From positions 31,496,001-31,560,000 of the forward strand of contig OX597814.1 in assembly GCA_951406725.2 (NCBI GenBank): a stretch of DNA of 64,000 nucleotides, read 5' to 3'. Source of the DNA: Octopus vulgaris (lineage: Eukaryota). The notes under the pieces are model-generated. The model searched no databases. It had not been told where the DNA came from and saw only the letters and a list, made by a program, of their open reading frames with translations. Of this stretch, positions 9,019 to 58,490 are shown piece by piece (position 1 is the stretch's first letter; the number at the start of each line of letters is the position of its first letter). A program made the translations under genes and the position numbers.

Positions 9019-9099
<81 letters not shown>

Positions 9100-9138
9100 C
9101 TCTATCTATCTATCTATCTCTCTCTCTCTCTCTCTCTC

Positions 9139-9197
<59 letters not shown>

Positions 9198-9203
9198 CTT
9201 ATA

Positions 9204-9596
9204 GGCGTAGAAGTTGCTGTGTGTTAAGTAGCTTGCTTACCAACGACATGGTTCCGGGTTCAGTCCCACTGCGTGGCACCTTGGGCAAGTGTCTTCTACT
9301 ATAGCCTCGGGCCGGCCAAAGACTAACGTGTGAATTCGATAGACGGAAACTGAAAGAGGCCCGTCGTATATATGTGTATATATATGTATGTGTGTGTCTA
9401 TATGTGTCTGTGTTCGTCTCCCCAACGTCGCTTGACAACCGATGGTGGTGTGTTTACCTCCTCGTAACTTAGCGGTTCGGTATAAGAGACCGATAGAATA
9501 AGTACTAGGCTTACAAAGAATAAGTCCTGGGGTCGATTTGCTCGATTAAAGGCGGTGCTCCAGCTTGGCCACAGTCAAATGGCTGAAACAAGTAAA
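9204..9596 (+). mobile_element. SINE family A, full length
   Basis: Head GGCGTAGAAGTTGCTGTGTG, conserved body, internal TA/TG tract, tail GCTGAAACAAGTAAA. Confidence 0.9.
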
Positions 9597-9597
9597 G

Positions 9598-10600
9598 TCT
9601 TTGGCACTATGCAGTGATACCCTATTCTAGCATAAATGTAACTCTCAGTGCCCAAGTTCCTCCAAGATCTTTCAGATATATATTACGTCATATATTTCCT
9701 GCCTACGGTCTATGGAATAGAGTCTCAAGCTCTTGTGTCTTTCCCAGTATCTTATATGCTGAATAGAGGCTTTCTTCTTCGTATAGCTTTGTTGGATTGC
9801 ATCAAGTTCTGCAATTAATTTTACACTGGTTGGTGGCCATAGCTGAGAGCAATAGTCAAAGTGGATCAGGACAAATGTCCTCCAGAGGACCATCATGGTT
9901 TCTCGACCATCCGTCTTAAAAGTTCTAAGAATCCATCCAGTCATCCATCTGCATTTCATTGCCAAATTAACGACATGCACAAGGAAAGATGCATCATTAT
10001 GCATGTAAATGCTAAGGTCTCAACACTGACTGTGTCTTTGGGATTTCAGTTCTTCCAGATTCAGTGTATTTAATTGGATTGCATTTAGATTTGCATGCTG
10101 ATAGTATACGGCTTGGATCATTTCAGTATTAAACTGCATGCTATCTTTCTTGGCCCACTTATATATTCAATCTAACTCAGGTTGACGTACATAGTGTCTT
10201 CAGGGTTCTGTATTGCCTGTGAGACTAATGTATCCTCTTCATAACTTGTGTTCGTGGCTCTCTGTGTGGCCGAAGGTATATCTGAGAGGGCCATTATAAA
10301 CAGTAGTGGTCCCAAGGCAATGCCTTGCGGAACACCACTCACAATTTACGTGTCATTGGAGATGACACCATTGGCTACTACTGCTTGACTTCTATGTTTT
10401 AGAAAGTCATGCAACCATTCTCCCAATTTCCCGACTATGCCGAGATCATGCAGTTTGTGACATATCATCCCATGATCAACTTTGTCGAAAGCCTTTGCAA
10501 AGTCAAGATATATCACTTCCACATTTGAGCGGTTGAGCGGCTGTTTCAACACCCGGTCATTGTGCTGTAAGGGTTGAGTCACGAAGCTTCTTCCAGGTCG
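9598..10600 (-). mobile_element. Decayed CR1-group LINE reverse transcriptase fragment
   Basis: Motifs VIYLDFAKAFDKVDHG, SGVPQG.ALGPLLF, FDYCSQLWPP and YWERHKSLRLYSIDRR, with frameshifts and stops. Confidence 0.85.
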
Positions 10601-11039
10601 CTAGCAATTGCAGTCACCAGGTCGCTAGCCACCAGAATTTGCACAAAGTATGTACATTAGTATATGTATTTAATAATTTTTATTACACTAGATCTGCTTT
10701 TACTTCATATGTAAGTTTTCTATTAGGTATGCAAATTTCCGGGTATACCAGCTCATGATTTTACAATTCATGGGCAAGTCGTGGCAAGCTGATTCGCCTT
10801 CAACCCAAGCAGGTGCGTAATGCCGACGACCCACAAAAATGGCGAAACACCGATGTCTATCACTCCTAAATAAGACTGAGGGTGAGTTATCTCACCTATC
10901 CGTACCTAAGGTATTTTAACACCGGTAACATGAGAGGTTTATACTGCGCTATGACATTCCAGTCACCCGAAAATACACAAAGTATATACCTTATTATATG
11001 CACTTAATAATATTTATTACTTTTACTTCATATATATAC

Positions 11040-11075
<36 letters not shown>

Positions 11076-11101
11076 CTGAGTGTACATATATCTATATCGG
11101 C

Positions 11102-11180
<79 letters not shown>

Positions 11181-11509
11181 CATATATATCTATACATATA
11201 TATATATATATATATAGACAGATATATAGATTGACATTCATCCGAATGAAAAATGTTTGCTAAAAACAAAGCCTAAAATTTCGGACATTACCGTTGACAA
11301 TAAATTATACACCCCGTCAGAAAAAAACAGTTGGTTCTTTATACATCAGTATTGTCGATATTTTCTTAAAAATGTACTTCGTATTCGAGCTGTATTTTCT
11401 CGCGACATTTGCTCTGTTAACGTAATTACTTCTTAGAAAAACAATCCCACAACTTCTTACGCACATACACAGCCACATACGCACTCGAGTCTGTATACAT
11501 TATACATAG

Positions 11510-11578
<69 letters not shown>

Positions 11579-11654
11579 TGATATATAAATATATGATTTA
11601 TGTGTAGACATATATAAATGCACTTACACACATATATGATAAAGACATACATAA

Positions 11655-11693
<39 letters not shown>

Positions 11694-12678
11694 GGCAGAA
11701 GAAACGTTTACATAAGTATTTTGTGTAATTAAATGTGTTCATAAAATAAAATAACAATGTGCAATTACTATTTCACTCAGTTCAGATGTTCAGCATTTAT
11801 ATGATAATAATAGGGAACAATGATAAGTAAAAGAAATGTCGTTGCTGCAAAATTATATAGGAGTGATCATAAACAATATCGCAAAAGTTATTACAGCAAT
11901 CGTATTGTGTGCAAAAATATACAGGCTAAAAGTCACTTTAGATGACAGAATCACCACAACAACAAAACACAATAGAAACAACAGCAAGACACCAACAATT
12001 ACAACAACAATATGATATTACTGTAGTAGTAGTAGTAGTAGTTGTTGTTGTTGTTGTGGTAGTAATGATCAGTAAAATTTTTAAAAAATACATAATATTG
12101 TGTCTAACGAAATAATTTTTTTTTAAAAATCAGACCGTAGCATACATTTAACATGTGCGGAATTATCTTATAAAGGAGACGAAGTAGAAAGATCGAGAAG
12201 GAAAACTAACCGAGTTCTGATGAACTCATAATTACTAACAAAAGAATGTCGACAATAGGTTGTCTGTTGGTAGAAATCATGCAAATTCTGATCTACGCGA
12301 ACAATCCTTGTTAATGGTGATAACCACCTTGAAGCAATGGTGGATCATATATTCATTGCTTACATAGGCTGTACTTCATTTGTGCAGCCTTTAAAGGCCA
12401 TATTAAAATGCAGCCATGAGAGGTGATGGGAAAACAGAGAGGAATGCCTATAATTAGTATGAAAAATACTTCAAAAAATTGTCACCTTCAAATTTATTAT
12501 CGTCATTAGCAAAGTTTTAAATTATTTTTTGTTCACAAGTATTACGGTTCCGCTTGCAATTATACATAGGCGTTTCATGCGCACTCACATGCAAGCAAAC
12601 TCATTTGCATGGTCATACATACAGACATACACACATGCATACATACATATATACATACACACACACACACATATATAA

Positions 12679-12743
<65 letters not shown>

Positions 12744-12826
12744 GTACACATATTTACATATGTGCATGTACGAAGCTATATCTATTTATACATTCATATA
12801 TACATATGTGCTATACATACACACAC

Positions 12827-12880
<54 letters not shown>

Positions 12881-13489
12881 TTACATAAATACCTATATCG
12901 CACACACACACACGCATATACACACATACACACAAACACATAATACATATCTAAATATAGACATGTGTACTTTTGCTAGTTTATATCTATATATATACGT
13001 ATATGTTATTCCATATATGTTCGTGAGTTTGTATATATTATCATGGAAATGCAGTTGCAAGCTTCTGCGTGCGCACATTAAACAATTATGTAGAATTATT
13101 CTGTCTGTCTGTCTGTCTCTGCCCCCCTTCTCTCTCTATATATATACTTATCTATCACTCTGTCTGTCTTTCTGTCTCTGTCTCTGTTTCTGTTTGTCTG
13201 TCTGTCTCTCTCACTATATATATATTTATATATATCTATAAATATATGCATATATATATATACATATATACATATATATCTATCTATCTATCTATATATA
13301 TATATATGTTGAGAGAGCGAGAGAGAGAGAGATAGAGAAATAGAGAGGGGGAAGATAGCTAAATAGATAGATAACAGATAGATACATAGAAAATATAGAG
13401 ATCTTTGTGGGAGGTTTAAGATACAATACATATAAGCATGTATACACACACACTCGCAACACACACTCGCACACATACACATATGTATG

Positions 13490-13542
<53 letters not shown>

Positions 13543-13738
13543 GTGAATTTCAATATATGTTGATATATACTCAGACAAAGAAGTAAACAAATTCATAATT
13601 TAATTAAAGTGAACGTATTCGTTTATTCGGACGTATTTTTCCTACATATATATGTGCATTTTGTTAGGAAGGCGTTGGAGCTTTGTGTATAGCCATTCTT
13701 CCCCTCTGTGTGCGCAACATCTCTGTGCGATGATATCA

Positions 13739-13774
<36 letters not shown>

Positions 13775-13811
13775 GTATATATATATGATTCATACATATA
13801 TTTAATAGATT

Positions 13812-32592: not shown

Positions 32593-35055
32593 CAGTGGTG
32601 ACTCCTACACTCGGGCTGTTCGAGTTCAGCCCGGGTATAAATTTAGAAAAGTGAACGTGAATTTGCAAACTCATTTAATTTCTGCCAACACTGACTTCAA
32701 TTATGTAATTGCAGCCTATAACTCGGGATCCTTTTATTGAGCCTGGTCGCCGTTCATTTATATTCGTTCAGCGTCTGGCAGTTGTTTTGAGGTATTCTGT
32801 GTCAAAAAATATAATTCGTAGCAGACATTCTCTCGACATCGTTCACACGCGCCTGACACGGGCCCGAGTTGTTATTTTTAATCGTAAAAATTTAAAATAA
32901 TTCAAACTCAATATTTTCTTGAAACAATAAATTTCTATAGAGATTAGGATTTAATTCCAATCTATGAAAAGTTTCCATTCTAAAATATCATCCAGCTATT
33001 CGGGCTAATACGAACGAGCCTGGTAAGTGTAAAAGACTAACTGGCATCTCATGTGAAGTATGCAGGCGACAGTCAGATCGCTCATGTTTGTTTATTCTGT
33101 GCATCTGTGTGTAAAGATCACTTGTATTTTGCAGGGTTGTTATATTTTTACCCTTAAATTAGAAGTAGAGAAAGACATAGTACTTGATATTAAAAACAAG
33201 CCATTTGGAGCTAGAAATATTGCAGAAAACGAAGGCCGACTCCTTCATTGAAAACTAAATTTGGAACTCAAACATTCCAGACAAAATGGTATGAACAGAT
33301 TGATTGGCTTTGTGCAAGTAGCGTCACAGGGAAACTCTACACCTGGCCAAAAGCTAATCAGTCATGGATAGATGGAGGCTATAATAATTTTAAAAACACC
33401 CTGAATGATTGTAAGTATCACAGTAAATCATTGAGTCATTTAAGCATTAATAGCTGTAAAAGCTTGAAAACTTTCGGGCTGTACGATATTGTGACAGCTA
33501 TTAGTGAGTCTGCTAAACTGGAAAAAGAACGACGTAACAAAGCAGCTGAAGAAAACTGACGAAGCAGTTAACAAATACTGTGATGTTCCTGTGTAAACAA
33601 GAGTTGCCTTTATGTGGAAATGATGAAGGAAGTGACAGCCTTAATAGAGGAAATTACCGCGAACTATAGCAGTGCTTTGCTGAAATCGACAGCGTGTTTG
33701 CTTTTAGACTTTCTACTAAAGAAGGGTTGAAACAGTGTTCAGGAGTCTCAAATACAATACAAGATGACCTAATACAAACGATTGGAAATGTCATCTCTGA
33801 TGATATTTGAAGCGAAGTTGATAAAGCTCTGTTCATGTATGCGCAAGCCGACAAAACTACAGACTGTGTAATGCATGCCCAACTGTCAATCGTAATAAGA
33901 TATGCATATGAAGACAAAACATGTGAACGATATCTTGGATTCTACGAAGTCAGTGATAATAAAATTGCTATAAGACTGGCTAACGTGATCGCAACAGCGT
34001 TGAACTCCTTCAGTGACGCTACAGATAAATTAGTGAGCCAGACTTACGACGGAGCAGCTGTAATGCAGGAACGCTAAATGGAGTACAGAGCATATGGCCC
34101 AGTGGTTAGGGCAGCGGACTCGCGGTCATAGGATCGCGGTTTCGATTCCCAGACCGAGCGTGGTGAGTGTTTATTGAGCGAAAACACCTAAAGCTGCACG
34201 AGGCTCCGGCAAGGGATGGTGGTGATCCCTACTGTACTCTTTCACCACAACTTTCTCTCACTCTTACTTCCTGTTTCTGTTGTACCTGTATTTCAAAGGG
34301 CCGGCCTTGTCACTCTCTGTGTCACGCTGAATATCCCCGAGAACTACGTTAAGGGTACACGTGTCTGTGGAGTGCTCAGCCACTTACACGTTAATTTCAC
34401 GAGCAGGCTGTTCCGTTGATTCAGATCAACCGGAACCCTCGTCGTCGTGACCGAGGGAGTGCTTCCTCCACAGAGCATACTAAGGGATAAAGGAATTATA
34501 CCTGCACACTTCATTCACTGCTATGCGTATAAACTTAACTTAGTGTTGAGTAAAAGTTCTGAGATTGTGAGTGGAGTAAAAATGTGTTTTTCTCATCTAC
34601 GCCCATCTAGTAAATATACATCTTCCAGTGCCTAGTGGTAAAACGTTTACAGGCAATTGAAATCAGTATTCCATCTCTGTGCGAAACAGAATGGCGCTAT
34701 AGATCAAGAACTGTGTCATCCATAAAATTATTGCTTGAAAACTTGAAAAATACCTTCACGCGTATTCTAGGTTCTGGTGAAAGTGGGATGATAATGCACT
34801 TTGTCAAACAGGAAAACTATTGGCCAAGTTGAATGATTTCACATTCAAGTTTTTTATCAATTGCTTTCATAAGATATTTTCTCAGACTGGAAAACTTTGT
34901 CTAGAAAACAAGTATTCCTATATTTTTGAATGTAAGAGCTTAGTGAACGAGCTAAAATATATGTATATTGACAGTGATTTCAAAAAGTGCAAGTCATTCA
35001 ACTCCATTTTGAAATTATTGTATAAATTGCAGTTGACTTCCGCCATGCCGGAAGG
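32593..35055 (+). mobile_element. Decayed hAT transposon (ZMYM1/DUF4371-type transposase pseudogene)
   Basis: Left end CAGTGGTGACTCC. Motifs FQTKWYEQIDWL, LPLCGNDE..DSLNRGNYREL, IQDDLI, ADKTTD....QLSIVIRY, ERYLGF, SQTYDGAAVM, FIHCYAYKLNLVL, CETEW, with several stops. The 3' end is lost. Confidence 0.9.
34095..34469 (+). mobile_element. SINE family C inserted in the hAT transposase
   Basis: A and B boxes present; 10-bp target-site duplication ACAGAGCATA at 34085-34094 and 34470-34479. Confidence 0.95.
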
Positions 35056-36380
35056 GACCTGTCGTTTAGATCGACCCCAGTATGCAACTTTGTCGATCCT
35101 CAAAGGATGAAAAGCAAAGTCGACTTCGGTAGAATTTGAACTAAGTACGTAAAGACAGAAAATATACCTATTTCTTTACTACCCACAAGGGGCTAAACAC
35201 AGCGGGGACAAACAAGTACAGACACACGGATTAAGTCGATTATATCGACCTCAGTGCGTAACTGGTACATATCTAATCGACCCCGAAAGGATTAAAGGCA
35301 AAGTCGACCTCGGCGGAATTTGAACTAAGAACGTAGCGGCAGACAAAATACCGCTAAGCATTTCGCCCTGCGTGCTAACATTTCTGCCAGCTAGCCGCCT
35401 TAGTTCTGCTTCAAACCGTCCACTTCACAGTAGAACGCACAGAGAATAGTGTATTTTGATATATTCCTTTCTACTCTAGGTACAAGGCCCGAAAATTTTG
35501 GGGAAGTGGCCAGTCGATTAGATTCACTCCGATACGCAACAGGTATCGACCCGGAAAGGATAAAAAACAAAGTCTATCTCGGCGGAATTTGAAATCAGCG
35601 TAAAGACAGACGGAAAACCTATTTCTAAAGACGGAAAACCTATTTCTATTTCTTTACTACCCACAAGGGGCTAAACACAGAAAGCAGAAACAAGGACAGA
35701 CAAACAGATTAAGTCGATTATATCGACCCCAATGCGTATCTGGTACTTATTTAATCGACCCCAAAAGGATGAAAGGCAAAGTCAACCTCGGCAGAATTTG
35801 AACTGAGAACGTAACCGCAGACGAAATACGTATTTCTTTACTACCCACAAGGGGCTAAACACAGAGAGGACAAACAAGGACAGACAAACGGATTAAGTCG
35901 ATTATATCGACTCGAGTGCGTAACTGGTACTTATTTAATCGACCCCGAAAGGATGAAAGGCAAAGTCGACCTCGGCGGAATTTGAACTCAGAACGTAGAG
36001 GCAGACAAAATACTGCTGAGCATTTCGCCCGGTGTGCTAACGTTTCTGCCAGCTAGCCACCTCAGTTATGTTTCAAATCATCCACCTCACAGTAAAACGC
36101 TCAAAAATAGTGTACTTTGATATATTCCTTTCTACTCTAGGCACAAGGCCCGAAAAGTTTGGAGAAGAGGCCAGTCGATTAGATCGATCCCGGTACGCAA
36201 CAGGTACTTAACTTATCGACCCCGAAAAGATGAAAGGCAAAGTCGATCTCGGCGGAATTCGAACTTAACGTAAAGACAGACGGAATACCATCAAGCATTT
36301 TGCCCGGCGTTCTAATGTTTTTTCCTGCTAACCGCCTTAGTTCTGTTTTAAATCGTCCACCTCACAGTAGAACTCACACA
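35056..36380 (-). mobile_element. Cluster of tandem SINE family B copies (about 6 cores)
   Basis: Repeated ATCGACCCCGAAAGGATGAAAGGCAAAGTCGACCTCGGCGGAATTTGAAC cores with two alternating tail types. Confidence 0.9.
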
Positions 36381-48172: not shown

Positions 48173-48753
48173 ATATATATATATACATATACATATATAT
48201 ACATATATATTTATCTATGTATATGTATGTATTTTCATACATACATACGCTCATACATATATACATACGTTTGTTTTTTAAGTGCTTTGGTTTTACTGAT
48301 ATCGCCCTTTTAAGTAGAAAGAATAGCCAAAAGTTTTTGACTGCTATTTCTAAATTCGGTATATGGTGAGGCAAATCGTTGCTGAACCCTTAATTAATTA
48401 GTATTACTTAAACCTTCCTTGAATGGGTCTTTTACATGCCGAACTCTACTTGGTGAAATTAATGATTATTTCTAAATTAATTAATTTCACCCTATATTAT
48501 TGATAACTGTATTTCATCCCAGTAAAAAACCGTAGCATCTTATTTTGGCAGCACGCTGGCGGAAGTGGGAAGGTGATTTACTTTCATTCACCCTTTGAAT
48601 TCGTTGGTACTGGTAAGGCTCACGTTCGCTCTGATACCATGAGTTGAGGTGATGTCTTCTAGTGCCTTCAAATTTAATACACAATTATTAATAATTGAGA
48701 CACAATTATTTATAATTGAAGAATCCTACGCTGAGGAGGAAAATAGTCAGGTA

Positions 48754-50041
48754 CGAGGGGCGTTCAATAAGTAATGCCCCTAACCCACTTGCATTTATTT
48801 GATCTAGCTGAAAATTTACATGTGCAATTATTTATATCTCTATGGATTAAGTGGCAAATTACAGCTCTGAACTTATTGTGGTTTCCGATTTACAGGTGTT
48901 TGAACTGAGTCAAGTGTGAAATGGAGCATGTTGAGTGTCGAGCAGTGATCCGGTTTTTGTATTTGAAAGGACGCACACCACGGGAGACTTTTGATGAAAT
49001 GAAAGTAACTTATGGTGATGATGCCCCATCATATGACCTTGTAAAACGCTGGCATCGTGAATTCAAACATGGTCGGAACTCTGTGGAAATAGCTCCCAGA
49101 TCTGGTCGCCCCCTTCTGCCATTGATGAGGCATCTGTCTGTCAAGTTGAGGCTGCCATTTTGGAAGATCGATGCATAACTATTCGCCAAATAGCCCATGA
49201 GGTCAAGATTAGTATCGGGTCTGTGGAAACAATCATTCATGACCATTTGCATATGCAAAAGGTGTCTGCCAGATGGATTCCCAGGTTGCTCACACCTTTC
49301 TAGAAGCAAGAACGCATCGATTGCTCGAGGATGAATTTGGAGATGTGCCAAGATGAGTCAAAATTTTTCAAAAGACTGATTACACAGGATGAAACCTGGG
49401 TCCATCACTATGATCCAGAGACCAAAGCCCAGTCAATGCAGTGGAAGCACCGTGACTCACCTCCTCCAAAGAAGGCAAGGGTGCAGCCCTCCGCTGGCAA
49501 GGTCATGCTTACAGTCTTCTGGGACCAGGACGGAGTAGTGAAGACAGATTTCCTGGCAAAGGGTGCCACAATTACAGGAGTCTATTATGCTTCAATTTTG
49601 AGGAAATTAAGAGAAGCTATCAAAATCAAGAGGCGGGGCAAGATCAGCAAAGGCATCCTCCTCTTGCAGGACAACGCTCCGATCCACAACTCGCGTTCCG
49701 CCAGATCAGAAGCACAGGCGTGCGGCTATGAACTCATCCCCCATCCCCCTACTCTCTTGACCTTGCACCCTCTGATTTTCACCTCTTCCCAGCCATGAAG
49801 TTGTTTTTGAAAGGAAAGCGTTTCCCAGATGATGCAGCCTTGATTTCTGAAGTCACGTCGTGATTGGAGGACCAAGCTGGGGTCTTCTACAAAAACGGTC
49901 TTCAGAGCCGCATCAAACAATGGGAGAAATGCGTAACTCTGGGTGGTTCCTCTGTAGAAAAAGACTAATAACTGTTCCAAGTTTCGTTGCTCTACTGCTA
50001 TGGGAAGTGGGTCAGGGGCATTACTTATTGAACGCCCCTCG
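48754..50041 (+). mobile_element. Full-length mariner (DD34D, probably irritans-like), 1288 bp
   Basis: 28-bp perfect TIR CGAGGGGCGTTCAATAAGTAATGCCCCT, with TA duplication at 48752-53 and 50042-43. Confidence 0.97.
48921..49968 (+). pseudogene. Mariner transposase pseudogene
   Basis: Translates as MEHVECRAVIRFL..., WIPRLL, TQDETWVHHYDPE, LQDNAP and YSLDLAPSDF. Frameshifts near 49115 and 49750; in-frame stops near 49301 and 49861. Confidence 0.95.
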
Positions 50042-50569
50042 TAAGACATAATTATTTAATTTTTATGCTCTGAATTGATTTGATTCCGAAACGTACGTCC
50101 GTAGGTAACTTAATATAGAATGATTTCCGTCATTTCTTTCTCTTTTGCCTGCGTCGTTTGTTTTTTAAGTGCTTTGGTTTTACTGGGATCGCCCTTTTAA
50201 GTAGAAAGAATAGCCAAAACTTTTTGACTGCTATTTCTAAATTCGGTATGTAGTGAGGCAAATCGTTGCTGAACCCTTAATTAATTAGTATATACATACA
50301 TACATGCATACATGCATACATGCATGTACTATCAAAAGTCTAGAAAAAGAAAAAAAAATATGGCGAATCAATGCGGAATTTCCAGTTCTTGTAAGTTACA
50401 TATCAATGTCTTGCTTATATACACTTTTAAGCGAATTCTACCTGAGTACCTGTCCAGCGAGCCATGTAGATGTTCAGACAAGATAGGGTTTGGATGCTAT
50501 CTGTCTGCAATAAATCTTAAAATGACTTGTAAATGATATTTATGTTTGAGAAAGAACCTGCTTCGTGGC

Positions 50570-53897: not shown

Positions 53898-54463
53898 ATA
53901 TATTAATAAAAAGAATTCCAACCTTGTCTGATTTTCACGTTTTATTTACAATCTTATAATGATATATTATAAGATAATATATTATAATTGAATAAAATAA
54001 AATGAAATAGTAGAATGTTAAATATTCATTCTGATTGAACTAGTACTTTCATGCATTGAATTCTGCAATATTCGGGTTCATGTAGTAGTGTTGACAGTCA
54101 TGCTTCACAATTTTTGACTGTAGCAAGATGAGTGATTCTGTGCTATAAATACAGCTGGGTAGGCTCCAGAGTGCTAGGTTTTGCAAACTGTATTCTGACC
54201 AATCAGTGTGTAGTATCACTCAATTACTTAAGCTGATTGGTTGGTTGAGCTGATTGGTTTAGGCATCACGCTTTGTTGGACAGGTCAAGAGTCCTGTATC
54301 TTGACCCTGGCCGAAGCAGCAATTGTTGGGTTATTTTTAGAAATGTTGTAAATATCCTTTGTCAGAGATTTTTATATTTTTATATTTCAATTGTCATCAT
54401 CATCATTGTCAGCACCTTAATTATTGTTGCTAGTGGTGATGGTGGTGGCAATAGAACTTTTAA
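53898..54463 (-). repeat. Inverted 5' copy of pLTR
   Basis: Reverse complement of 57790-58356; I see one substitution and one 1-bp indel. Confidence 0.95.
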
Positions 54464-55444
54464 TGGAAAAAACTCCTTAACATAAGAAAACAAAACTTCT
54501 GGAAGGCATATAAATGCGAAAAATATGCTGAAATACATTCGAAATGGATATCTTTAGCGGCACCCATACTTCCTCGGAAGTACCTAATTAAAGAAATTGC
54601 AGGAGAACCAGAGGAAGAAACTAAACTTCGATGGGACCTTAGTTTGATAAAATTCAGGACCGACATCTCCATTACCCTGTCTAAACAATCCCGCTACAAA
54701 GCCAAATACGAAGCTATCGATGATCAAATCAGAGATGAAATATCCAAACTAACGACCGGCAATATAGCAGAAAAAATGCGAGAACTATGGATCAGAGATA
54801 TCTCAAAAGAAGAAAGCAGATCAAGAAAGTTTTGGCAGCGGAAACAATTATTTCTCGACAAATATGCTACAAATTACGGTAAAGACACCAGAACTCCGAG
54901 AAATAGCATTAAAAGTGGACAACCTCACCAACGCAACATACACCAGAACACGTGGCAACATGAACACCCGTTTCACCACGAATCGAAGACGAACTACGGT
55001 AAGAACTCTTCCCATTTTGTATGCAAACACCCTAATGCACACAACATGAACAAAAAGCACAAACAAAATAGATATTGTTTTGAACAGACCATTAGCAGTA
55101 GAAATAACAGGAGATCATTTTCAAGACCTCAACAGAGATTACCCACAAGAAACTGGACAAAAAACCGATCTAGATCTAGAAGTAAACCCAGATCATTTCT
55201 CCAGGTGGTTAAAAACAATGCTAACAAGAAATTGAAAAGTAGCATACATAATACCAAAAACAAGACAGAAAACATAACGAAACCAAGTAAAGTACCACAA
55301 CCAAAACGCAAAATTCATCAAGCAAACATCAACAGGAATATAAATCATAACCAGAAAAAAATCCATTTTTTTACGTCAGGACAACAAACACCGGAGAAAG
55401 AAAAAATCCAAGAGGAAACATACCCCAAACAACTGAACGTATAG
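54464..55444 (+). CDS. PLE upstream ORF (5'-truncated; helical W-rich domain plus basic low-complexity tail)
   Basis: Open from the inversion junction (WKKLLNIRKQNFWKAYK...) to TAG at 55442-44, with no authentic start codon at its 5' end. The tail is R/S/K/N-rich (RSRSRSKPRS). Confidence 0.7.
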   Translation, partial: WKKLLNIRKQNFWKAYKCEKYAEIHSKWISLAAPILPRKYLIKEIAGEPEEETKLRWDLSLIKFRTDISITLSKQSRYKAKYEAIDDQIRDEISKLTTGNIAEKMRELWIRDISKEESRSRKFWQRKQLFLDKYATNYGKDTRTPRNSIKSGQPHQRNIHQNTWQHEHPFHHESKTNYGKNSSHFVCKHPNAHNMNKKHKQNRYCFEQTISSRNNRRSFSRPQQRLPTRNWTKNRSRSRSKPRSFLQVVKNNANKKLKSSIHNTKNKTENITKPSKVPQPKRKIHQANINRNINHNQKKIHFFTSGQQTPEKEKIQEETYPKQLNV

Positions 55445-57678
55445 ATCCTAAAATAATTAATTTATCAAAAAGAGATCTTGACAATGATGAAATCCAACTT
55501 CTGTCAAAAGGACTGAAATTCACACCTACACCAACAGCCAACCACCAAGAATTAAAGGAGGATATCCAAAAATTCTGTCGAAAATTACGACTTGTAGAAT
55601 TCTTCGCTAACAAAAGTAATGAGATTGATGAATCCCTAGTAAGGAATAAATCAAATTTCACCCCACCAAAAGGAAGAAATAACTACCTTGACCAATACAT
55701 TGATATCCTGTCTAAATTTCCCCTTAGACGCAATACCAATGTTAGGCCAAACATTAGCAAATCAGAGATGTCTGCATGTAAACGTATACAAAACGATCAA
55801 ACAATAATAATTAAACAAGCAGATAAAGGTGGTGCAATTGTTATTATGGATACCGAATACTATAAGGATTTGGTTGAAGACCAACTGAAGGATACAACCT
55901 TCTATTGTGAAATACCCGCAAATATAGACCACCACATCATGAAAAAGATCAACAACCTGATTTCAACACACCACAACTCACTTACGGATAATGAAAAAGA
56001 CTACATCACCAATTTTGAACCAAAACCCAGCAACTTCTACGGCTTACCAAAAATACACAAATCAAAAAACATTCAACAGGCAGTAAAAGAACAAGAAAGT
56101 GAGTACATAACATTATTACATCCAAAAGACCTAAAACTTAGACCTATTATAGCTGGTCCAGCATGCCCTACACACCGTCTAAGCAATTTTATTGACATTG
56201 TTTTGAAACCACTATGTACTTACATACCAAGTTTCATCAGGGATGACATCGACTTCCTGTCCCATCTTCCCAAAACAACAGAAACAAATTCAGTTTTACT
56301 AAGTTTTGATGTGGTAAGCCTCTACACCAATATTCCACACGATTTAGGAATAAAGGCGATTAAATACTGGTTAGAAAAACATAGAGAAGTGATTCCCAGC
56401 AGATTCACAGTGCCATTTATATTAGACACAGTCAAACTTATTCTAGAAAATAACACATTCTTCTTCAATGGAAAGAATTACATCCAAATTAGAGGCACGG
56501 CGATGGGAACGAGGTTTGCTCCCGTTTACGCCAACTCTGTAATGGGATACTTAGAAGAACAACTCTACCAAGAGGTGGAGGTAAACTATGGCACTGGATT
56601 TAGAAAGTATATTGAAAAGGCATGGAAGAGATACCTAGACGACTGTTTCATAATCTGGACAGAATCTCTAAATACTCTGGAAGAGTTCAATATCCTCCTG
56701 AACAACCTACACCCATCTCTCAAATTTACAAAGGAGATGAGTAGTACCAAATTACCATTCCTGGATATAATGGTAATTAAAAAAGACACCACCATCACCA
56801 CAGATATATACTATAAACACACAGACACACATCAATACCTAAATTTTAAGTCGTGCCATCCACCACATACAAAACGTAACATCCCATACTGCCTAGCCAG
56901 AAGAATTTGTACTATTGTAGAAGATGCAAATATCAGGAACAAACGCCTAATAGAACTAAGAGAATTTTTGCTCAAACAAAAATACCCATCTCTACTTATA
57001 GAAAATGGCATACAGCGGGCTGTAAAAATACCTATACAACAACTTAGGACAACCCAAGGAAGAGGAAAACAAGAACAAGTCATACCATTCATAGTGACAC
57101 ACAACCCATGTCACCAGAATATCTTCAACATTGCCAAAGCAAACCTACCAATCATTGCCCAAAGTAATGAATTAAAAGACATAATCAAGGATCGAGCTAT
57201 GGTGCTTAGTAAAAGACAGCCTAAAAACTTGAAAACATTACTAACAAAGGCAAAATTTGACCTCAGCAACAAAGACCAAACATTCACGGTATCTAAATGC
57301 AATGATAGCCGATGTGGCACATGCCAATTCATACATACCGGTCAATATATAAACACAAAAACCGGGAAAATATTCACAAACGCGAATATGAACTGCAAAA
57401 GCAGAAATTTAATTTACTGCATCAAATGCCCAAATTGTGAAGAAATATATGTAGGTCAGACGGGAAACGCACTATTAGAACGCTCACGTGTACACCGGCA
57501 ACAGATTAGAGACCCAGAGGTCCGTCAGATACCTTTGAGTAACCACCTAGCAACATGTGGTCGGAAAATATATATAATATTTCCATTCTACAAATTACAC
57601 AGCCCAAGTGAAATCGAGAGGAAAATCAGAGAAAAGAATTTTATTGATAAATTCGAACCCAAGCTAAATAAGCAATAA
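55351..57678 (+). CDS. PLE reverse transcriptase plus Cys-rich linker plus GIY-YIG endonuclease
   Basis: The frame is open from 55351 (first ATG 55768). Motifs: IINLS..L...LLSKGLKFTPTP, IKQADKG, FYGLPKIHK, LRPII, SFDVVSLYTNIP, GTAMG, RYLDD, PFLD, CNDSRCGTC, LIYCIKCPNCEEIYVGQT...ER...H. Confidence 0.95.
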   Translation, partial: PEKNPFFYVRTTNTGERKNPRGNIPQTTERIDPKIINLSKRDLDNDEIQLLSKGLKFTPTPTANHQELKEDIQKFCRKLRLVEFFANKSNEIDESLVRNKSNFTPPKGRNNYLDQYIDILSKFPLRRNTNVRPNISKSEMSACKRIQNDQTIIIKQADKGGAIVIMDTEYYKDLVEDQLKDTTFYCEIPANIDHHIMKKINNLISTHHNSLTDNEKDYITNFEPKPSNFYGLPKIHKSKNIQQAVKEQESEYITLLHPKDLKLRPIIAGPACPTHRLSNFIDIVLKPLCTYIPSFIRDDIDFLSHLPKTTETNSVLLSFDVVSLYTNIPHDLGIKAIKYWLEKHREVIPSRFTVPFILDTVKLILENNTFFFNGKNYIQIRGTAMGTRFAPVYANSVMGYLEEQLYQEVEVNYGTGFRKYIEKAWKRYLDDCFIIWTESLNTLEEFNILLNNLHPSLKFTKEMSSTKLPFLDIMVIKKDTTITTDIYYKHTDTHQYLNFKSCHPPHTKRNIPYCLARRICTIVEDANIRNKRLIELREFLLKQKYPSLLIENGIQRAVKIPIQQLRTTQGRGKQEQVIPFIVTHNPCHQNIFNIAKANLPIIAQSNELKDIIKDRAMVLSKRQPKNLKTLLTKAKFDLSNKDQTFTVSKCNDSRCGTCQFIHTGQYINTKTGKIFTNANMNCKSRNLIYCIKCPNCEEIYVGQTGNALLERSRVHRQQIRDPEVRQIPLSNHLATCGRKIYIIFPFYKLHSPSEIERKIREKNFIDKFEPKLNKQ

Positions 57679-57789
57679 TAATAATACTTAGAGGTATTAC
57701 TTCCACTGCTACGACCATGACCACTAACAACAACAACAATACTAAAGGTGATCAAGACGAAGATAGCAGGAAAATTATCTTATTTAGGG

Positions 57790-58490
<701 letters not shown>

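Follow-up and report, generated by a model that had tools for sequence, protein, structure and literature searches.

Within the 64,000 nucleotides of Octopus vulgaris DNA analysed here (the window), a mariner transposon splits a type I hammerhead ribozyme motif that belongs to a dispersed repeat family. We give a probability of about 0.8 to the following reading: this copy is a 5′-truncated member of a non-coding repeat of about 600 bp, the repeat being likely a Penelope-type, non-autonomous retrozyme; the mariner likely jumped into the extended helix II of the copy later and by chance; and the copy is likely dead. The hammerhead motif is real, the family is of the retrozyme type and without a description found by title, and the copy in the window is interrupted by an ordinary nested mariner. 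Among openly accessible papers on octopus or cephalopod ribozymes, none was listed by its title as describing the family. An earlier note on the same DNA had singled out the split motif and overlooked its membership in this Penelope-type retrozyme family.

A type I hammerhead motif split by a mariner

In-silico removal of the mariner (48754-50041) and one TA yields a 91-nt type I hammerhead motif (Table 1) with the CUGANGA and GAAA core, the A15.1-U16.1 pair and an NUH cleavage triplet. The motif has the canonical metazoan form as described in PMC4209133, namely a 6-bp helix I, a 4-bp helix II and a short palindromic helix III. On re-reading, the coordinates that the earlier note gave for the helices, core, palindrome and cleavage site were all correct, and its claims that deleting the mariner restores a complete type I hammerhead (full helix I, intact core, GUC) and that helix III is a palindrome of the dimer type were borne out.

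A type I descriptor (helix I of at least 6 bp, helix II of at least 4 bp, halves at most 1,500 nt apart, both strands) matched the window once and none of 100 block-shuffled windows. The 22-nt 3′ half (50084-50105) has 88 exact copies in the 2.8-Gb genome, and a full-motif pattern search of the genome returned 501 uninterrupted copies, the core of which is fixed by the selection pattern used to pick them; both searches gave 0 in their controls. These counts and the shuffles rule out a chance pairing of the two halves, and they supply the uninterrupted genomic copies conserving the motif on which the earlier note had made its proposal depend.

Table 1. Coordinates of the split hammerhead, its host repeat and the mariner in the window
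Feature	Position in window	Strand	Details
5′-truncated repeat unit	48268..48753	+	unit positions 56 to ~541 (position 1 directly follows the cleavage site); 94% match with a full unit
5′ half of hammerhead	48725..48741	+	helix I strand, CUGAGGA core, helix II strand
Helix I	48725-30 with 50100-05		CCTACG with CGTAGG; 6/6 paired
Core CTGAGGA	48731-37
Helix II base	48738-41 with 50084-87		GGAA with TTCC
Loop 2 (internal), 5′ side, and helix II extension, 5′ side	48742..48749	+	loop 48742-44, extension 48745-49 (pairs 50076-80); predicted P 0.97 in excised form; covariation across subfamilies
Donor-like CAG/GTAAGA in helix II	48749-50047 (excised)		acceptor-like tract downstream, 50169
Tc1/mariner DNA transposon with flanking TA	48752..50043	+	inverted repeats 48752-48790 and 50005-50043
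Remainder of extended helix II and loop 2, 3′ side	50044..50083	+	last base A50083
3′ half of hammerhead	50084..50106	+	helix II strand, GAAA, palindromic helix III, helix I strand, U1.7 at 50106; 50084-50105 has the 88 exact genomic copies
GAAA of core	50088-91
Palindrome ACGTACGT (helix III)	50091-98
GUC triplet	ends 50099		C17 = C50099; predicted cleavage after C50099
3′ tail	50107..50292	+	ends at first preferred end (unit position 193), adjoining TA/TACA microsatellite
Predicted anti-helix-I strand	50145..50153	+	complementary 9/9, with G-U, to 50100-50108

The host repeat family

Thirty of the 88 copies of the 3′ half were fetched, of which 22 are uninterrupted, seven are 5′-truncated inside helix II and one is the window copy. 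Among the uninterrupted copies, 19 have a 52-nt spacer, one has 54 nt, one a 3-nt deletion and one a core mutation. The hammerhead motif recurs once per unit of a head-to-tail repeat of 582-601 bp, in arrays of up to four units (dimers to tetramers, full dimers being common) with nothing between joined units; loci L124, L126 and L134 hold at least two consecutive complete hammerheads. The unit has a GC content of 35.9%, its subfamilies are 74-98% alike, and neither the unit nor the space between tandem units contains a long open reading frame (ORF).

Without the mariner, the window copy (48268-50292) is preceded by a TA/TACA microsatellite and spans unit positions 56-599 and then 1-193, so that a 137-bp direct repeat stands at 48268 and 50155 (50155-50291 repeats 48268-48404 at 96%). 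Its host sequence is 97.9% identical to that of the nearest sister over 388 nt. The copy has one hammerhead, split, whereas an 'active' copy in the sense of the preprint by Li et al. (bioRxiv 10.64898/2026.07.22.740005) has two or more complete hammerheads in succession; because it has only one, the window copy cannot excise a monomer. Elsewhere in the family, locus L031 (G000:C4:31207000-31215000) shows a 2.94-kb tandem duplication in which a retrozyme copy lies beside an unrelated Penelope-like remnant.

Tandem type I hammerhead repeats without coding capacity are described as non-LTR retrozymes, with Penelope-like elements as their proposed drivers (Cervera and de la Pena 2020, PMC7229834; bioRxiv 10.64898/2026.07.22.740005). 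As those two sources portray the metazoan representatives, the octopus family is like them in its head-to-tail repeats, which are non-coding and low in GC and have a single type I hammerhead in each unit, its short palindromic helix III, its strongly self-paired predicted monomer and the co-occurrence of Penelope-like elements. Its unit of about 600 bp compares with 150-450 bp in PMC7229834 and falls inside the 51-972 bp of the preprint. It differs in a helix II that extends about 52 nt beyond the 4-bp base and in mostly dispersed insertions of 1.2 to 2 units in (TA)n; its circular RNA and its cleavage are putative.

Insertion anatomy and a likely Penelope connection

The ends of the copies fall at preferred places. 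Upstream of unit position 415 there are 56 distinct alignment ends, of which 21 are at 185-200 and another 19 at 284-305; a TA-type microsatellite adjoins 35 of these 40 preferred ends as against 6 of the 16 others. The 5′ ends are ragged, frequently with an inverted piece; inverted pairs stand at L002/3, L006/7, L008, L010/11, L022/23 and L137. The family thus presents hallmarks of non-autonomous Penelope-like elements: partial tandem and inverted insertions, preferred 3′ ends and a microsatellite bias. Published accounts attribute partial tandems, inverted 5′ copies, tails and microsatellite bias to Penelope-like elements (PMC8557442), the tail being produced by two internal starts of reverse transcription (PMC11167929). 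Because this Penelope-type anatomy is combined with the lack of an ORF, we regard the family as most likely being a non-LTR retrozyme that a Penelope-like element mobilises.

Three protein searches for a Penelope-like partner gave 9,070-13,776 first-look candidates each, and few of the many families were taken in. The young Penelope-like families that we found in the genome have ORFs of 899, 838-841, about 955 and 1,312 amino acids; Pfam returned no family for the 899-aa or the 1,312-aa protein. We take the 899-aa, 838-841-aa and ~955-aa families to have a DKT-type or related reverse transcriptase and, by motifs only, to belong to the Hydra clade, and from known motifs we take the 899-aa and 1,312-aa proteins to combine reverse transcriptase with GIY-YIG. 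The latter labels also draw on the DKT motif in PMC8557442. Several of these young families carry terminal-repeat hammerheads, whose spacers measure about 55, 16 and 85 nt and whose helix III is an 8-nt palindrome. None of the Penelope-like families compared shares sequence with the repeat unit, and we therefore infer a driver rather than name one. We ran blastn and an nhmmer profile across 53 loci chosen for their Penelope-like ORFs; the only matches were to insertions of the repeat nearby, and not to those elements' own terminal repeats. No ORF with reverse transcriptase and GIY-YIG was found between terminal repeats: there was none between tandem units, and nearby ORF pieces are out of phase with the unit. 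As partners we rejected the L024 reverse transcriptase, the L031 endonuclease and the L165 ORF, which either lie next to the repeat in a common microsatellite tract or are on the opposite strand.

Alternatively, an autonomous Penelope-like element that escaped the search could have this unit as its terminal repeat (pseudo-LTR), and the copies would be its 5′-truncated ends. The autonomous Hydra-type elements of this genome do have two tail ends and similar hammerheads, with a helix II of about 55 or 85 nt and an 8-nt palindromic helix III, and a matching family could lie among the many not compared. However, a terminal repeat does not readily account for units joined head to tail up to four times with nothing between them, or for the common full dimers, and the ORF pieces by L024, L031 and L165 belong, where this can be seen, to families with different terminal repeats and are set apart by microsatellite or by strand. 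We consider this explanation unlikely. The hammerheads of Penelope pseudo-LTRs, as presented in PMC4209133, PMC8557442 and PMC11167929, resemble the octopus family in their partial tandems, 5′ inversions, two preferred 3′ ends and microsatellite targets; the octopus family differs in having no ORF, in a canonical 6-bp helix I and 4-bp helix II instead of the minimal motif, and in ends about 100 nt apart instead of a 30-40-bp tail, and no sequence-matched autonomous partner was found among the families compared.

Besides the retrozyme itself, autonomous Hydra-type families with intact frames of 890-960 aa at L075, L078, L080, L083 (terminal repeats), L167 and L170 carry or adjoin hammerheads with a helix II of about 55 or 85 nt, and the 899-aa family is found in 3.6-kb tandems. 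A very young family with a frame of 1,311-1,312 aa (L128-L133), its copies 99% identical, forms 4.6-kb tandems and has no hammerhead by the descriptor. The window also contains a Penelope-like element (53900-58340) with RVT_1 and GIY-YIG domains (55351-57675, 775 aa), an upstream frame (54464-55441) and an inverted copy of its own 3′ UTR at its 5′ end; it has no homology to the retrozyme unit. A distant family of 565-bp repeats (L076:6069-7327, L123, L161 and L122) has a different hammerhead with a 10-nt palindromic helix III and matches unit positions ~100-300 at 66-71%, both preferred 3′ ends included. This common region is a candidate signal for the mobilising protein.

Ribozyme structure across copies

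We compared 52 distinct intact copies. Helix II shows double-sided changes at three pairs (G-C 27, A-U 25; A-U 45, G-C 7; C-G 24, U-G 17, U-A 10), and 92.7% of cells are paired as against 22-39% with slid partners, a T-T pair written into the structure (columns 45-55) being scored as unpaired. Helix I varies by wobble changes only. The observed number of doubly changed pairs was reached in 52 of 500 shuffles and, the copies being related, the covariation may reflect perhaps three or four events. The loop II of about 50 nt described in the earlier note has that length, at 52 nt, and is not a plain loop: a 3+3 internal loop is followed by an extended, irregular and covarying helix.

A tertiary contact between loops 1 and 2 of hammerheads joins U1.7 to the last A of loop 2, a conserved pair. 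In the octopus family the U after helix I (U1.7) and the final A of loop 2 are invariant in all 52 copies, an invariance seen equally in 18 of 80 unselected columns. Both the palindromic helix III of hammerheads and their loop contacts are treated in PMC3088659. When the 52 copies are folded singly, helix I is favoured in 42 of them and helix II in 40. The RNAalifold consensus is another fold, not the hammerhead, in which the 5′ helix I strand pairs with GGUAAGAC; we set it aside, since it exceeds P 0.5 in only 2 of the 52 single sequences, against the 42 that favour helix I. Helix III has a predicted probability of 0.01-0.04 in the monomer, and the palindrome duplex of a dimer is predicted at 8 bp and -11.2 kcal/mol. 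A helix III that is weak in the monomer and formed in the dimer has been reported for metazoan type I motifs (PMC4209133). The circular monomer has a predicted folding z score of -6.2 against 40 shuffles.

Flanking sequence alters these predictions. With 400 nt upstream, helix I has a predicted probability of 0.00-0.27 and is not favoured even in intact copies. In 50 of 53 copies, compared with 0 of 53 in a control stretch, a strand located 45-54 nt past the cleavage site is predicted to pair with the 3′ helix I strand at 8-9 of its 9 positions. When 60 nt are added downstream, the predicted probability of helix I drops to about 0 both for the window copy and for four sisters. This anti-helix-I strand is a predicted off-switch, which would displace helix I once transcribed; the RNAfold prediction for the distant L076 family does not contain the pairing.

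The extended helix II also resembles a spliceosomal intron donor, CAG/GTAAGA, with the TA of the mariner inside it. Were an intron removed from here, the cleavage site would be deleted, so that splicing and self-cleavage would be alternatives. Penelope-like elements are described with 5′ UTR introns near the hammerhead (PMC4209133, PMC8557442), the TAA of GGTAAG is invariant in all 52 copies, and a pyrimidine tract with an AG stands at 50169. Yet the invariance of the donor alone is weak, given the equally invariant unselected columns, and the related L076 family has no donor. The acceptor AG is lost in 3 of 8 aligned family units (CAAATG twice, TACGTG once), and among the contig matches listed there was no GT..AG joint. 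We rejected the intron because its acceptor is not conserved across subfamilies, and consider it highly improbable.

The mariner insertion

The mariner comprises 1,288 bp between a TA at 48752-53 and a TA at 50042-43, with terminal inverted repeats that are perfect over 30 nt including the TA and match at 38 of 39 positions over 39 nt. Its transposase (about 48921-49968; Pfam Transposase_1, E 2.5e-24, and HTH_48, E 8.3e-10) is broken: its frame shifts near 49110 and again near 49744, and stop codons stand at 49301 and 49861. Near-full-length sisters at 93-100% account for 37 of 40 scored candidates; 17 of the 19 that were fetched are TA-flanked at both ends, and L101 keeps a 365-aa transposase frame. 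Compared with the majority of the 12 closest sisters, the window element has 25 substitutions in 1,292 positions and four deleted bases. It is like other nested Tc1/mariner insertions in its 1.29-kb length, TA duplication, short inverted repeats, HTH_48 and Transposase_1 domains and many sisters at 93-97%, and is ordinary except for its landing site. In contigs of run X1, loose telomere-like (TTAGGG)n ends fall inside the mariner near 48894 and 48927.

The left junction between mariner and hammerhead occurs once in the genome in an exact-pattern search, which a mutated junction would escape. On this evidence, limited to the exact pattern of the left junction, a co-amplification of mariner and retrozyme was rejected. 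From the TA duplication and the unique junction, the simplest order of events is retrozyme first and mariner second, in place.

Predicted folding of the split hammerhead

The earlier note had also suggested that the mariner's terminal inverted repeats pair and extrude the insert, so that the hammerhead might still fold. Stated as a function of the locus, the paired 36-39-bp inverted repeats would push 1.3 kb out of helix II into a side arm, and read-through RNA would be cleaved after C50099, a second hammerhead RNA giving helix III in trans. The mariner sits 11 nt beyond helix II, sparing loop 2, A50083 and U50106, and ViennaRNA pairs the inverted repeats with a probability of 0.97. With 10, 60 and 150 nt upstream, the predicted probability of helix I is 0.96, 0.86 and 0.47 with the mariner in place and 0.95, 0.88 and 0.43 with it excised; helix II, at 0.58, 0.56 and 0.63 as against 0.95 when excised, is weakened but formed. 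With 150 nt on both sides, however, the mariner form loses both hammerhead helices, I and II each being at about 0, and the excised form retains helix II at 0.87; equilibrium folding over 1.4 kb is also unreliable. As a matter of chemistry, the suggestion of the earlier note is reasonable.

At all 39 core and helix positions the copy agrees with the family majority, but by simple arithmetic zero changes in 39 nt are expected about half the time at 2% divergence, and the split copy is without measurable sign of selection. The unique left junction was never amplified; there is a single hammerhead with a weak helix III, so that a helix III partner would be needed; and no host-gene exon was recognised among the longer ORFs of the window, where short exons would be missed. 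Contigs of runs X1, X2 and X16 join across the empty site, which other copies can explain, and four runs guessed to be RNA contain family sequence as contigs, which is not evidence of expression; among the matches listed, no run is on record as RNA and no contig bridges the mariner junction.

A precedent exists in the discontinuous hammerheads of mammalian Clec2 3′ UTRs (Martick et al. 2008, as reported in PMC2950038 and PMC2920678), whose halves likewise lie far apart on one strand and escape pattern searches. As portrayed there, the Clec2 ribozymes are active, belong to the 3′ UTRs of mRNAs and occur in more than one mammal; the searches for them allowed inserts in loop 1 or 3. In contrast, the window hammerhead is split in helix II by a recognisable transposon and, its left junction having been found once, is unique in its own genome, where a recurrence of the Clec2 type was not encountered; it is described here through its letters and predicted folding. 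Overall, a function of the split form at this locus is quite unlikely, and we regard it as very unlikely that the transposon made a natural discontinuous hammerhead, clamped by inverted repeats that extrude 1.3 kb from helix II, which still cuts transcripts of the locus in vivo. If it had, any inverted-repeat transposon in a peripheral helix could leave a ribozyme working, unseen by scanners. That the split RNA, given a helix III partner, cleaves measurably in vitro is possible, if somewhat doubtful, and such activity would be compatible with our preferred reading of a truncated retrozyme copy hit by chance.

Detection and the long helix II

Rfam hammerhead models gave no match in the window at the gathering score, in keeping with the earlier note's expectation that scanners miss the motif. 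An Rfam search of six loci whose motifs are intact, one from a family with a short helix II, returned 137 matches at E up to 10, and no hammerhead was among them. Because intact copies, including one with a short helix II, are missed as well, the miss is not caused by the mariner; it is a detection limit and not a defining test of a hammerhead. With the left junction unique and the host copy truncated and reduced to a single hammerhead, the notion that the insertion is what hides the motif or makes it special is not sustained.

The pattern CTGANGA-N40-68-GAAACGTACGT has 830 matches genome-wide (control 3). Besides the retrozyme family, it covers many unrelated hammerhead families, for example at L108, L110, L115, L122, L127, L134 and L138, in which helix II is predicted to be well paired and helix III is palindromic. 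Craig et al. (PMC8557442) give a 7-17-nt spacer as the one used, and eight 'half-core' cases at 35-50 nt. The chances are about even that long-helix-II hammerheads form a common, undercounted class in Penelope-type elements, and the matches suggest that descriptors with a short helix II set hammerhead counts in such elements too low. The long helix II, common to many families of this genome, is the part most worth following.

A proposed cycle and the place of the window copy

From the anatomy of the insertions and from published retrozymes, the following mechanism may be proposed for the family. Tandem copies would be transcribed, and consecutive hammerheads would pair through the ACGUACGU palindrome and cut after GUC, freeing a monomer of about 600 nt that is perhaps circularised; the anti-helix-I strand would confine cleavage to a short co-transcriptional window. 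A Penelope-like protein with reverse transcriptase and GIY-YIG would nick a (TA)n tract, and reverse transcription would start internally, either ~193 or 290-301 nt beyond the cleavage site. Copying beyond one unit length would then produce arrays of 1.2 to 4 units with fixed 3′ ends, ragged 5′ ends and inversions. In the preprint on metazoan retrozymes, eight of nine predicted dimers did not cleave (bioRxiv 10.64898/2026.07.22.740005).

The window copy is likely dead, even while its split fold is predicted to form, and in itself matters little, being most likely one decayed insertion among hundreds. It supplies a natural construct for testing whether the inverted repeats of a transposon can push a kilobase insert out of a ribozyme. 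Of greater weight is the family, with about 500 canonical hammerheads that have a long helix II and were missed by Rfam in the loci tested, and its two preferred 3′ ends provide a non-coding substrate for studying the internal initiation of Penelope reverse transcription. Elsewhere in the window, DUF4371 fragments at 33215-35107 (E 0.0015, below the cut-off) presumably represent a hAT-type DNA transposon.
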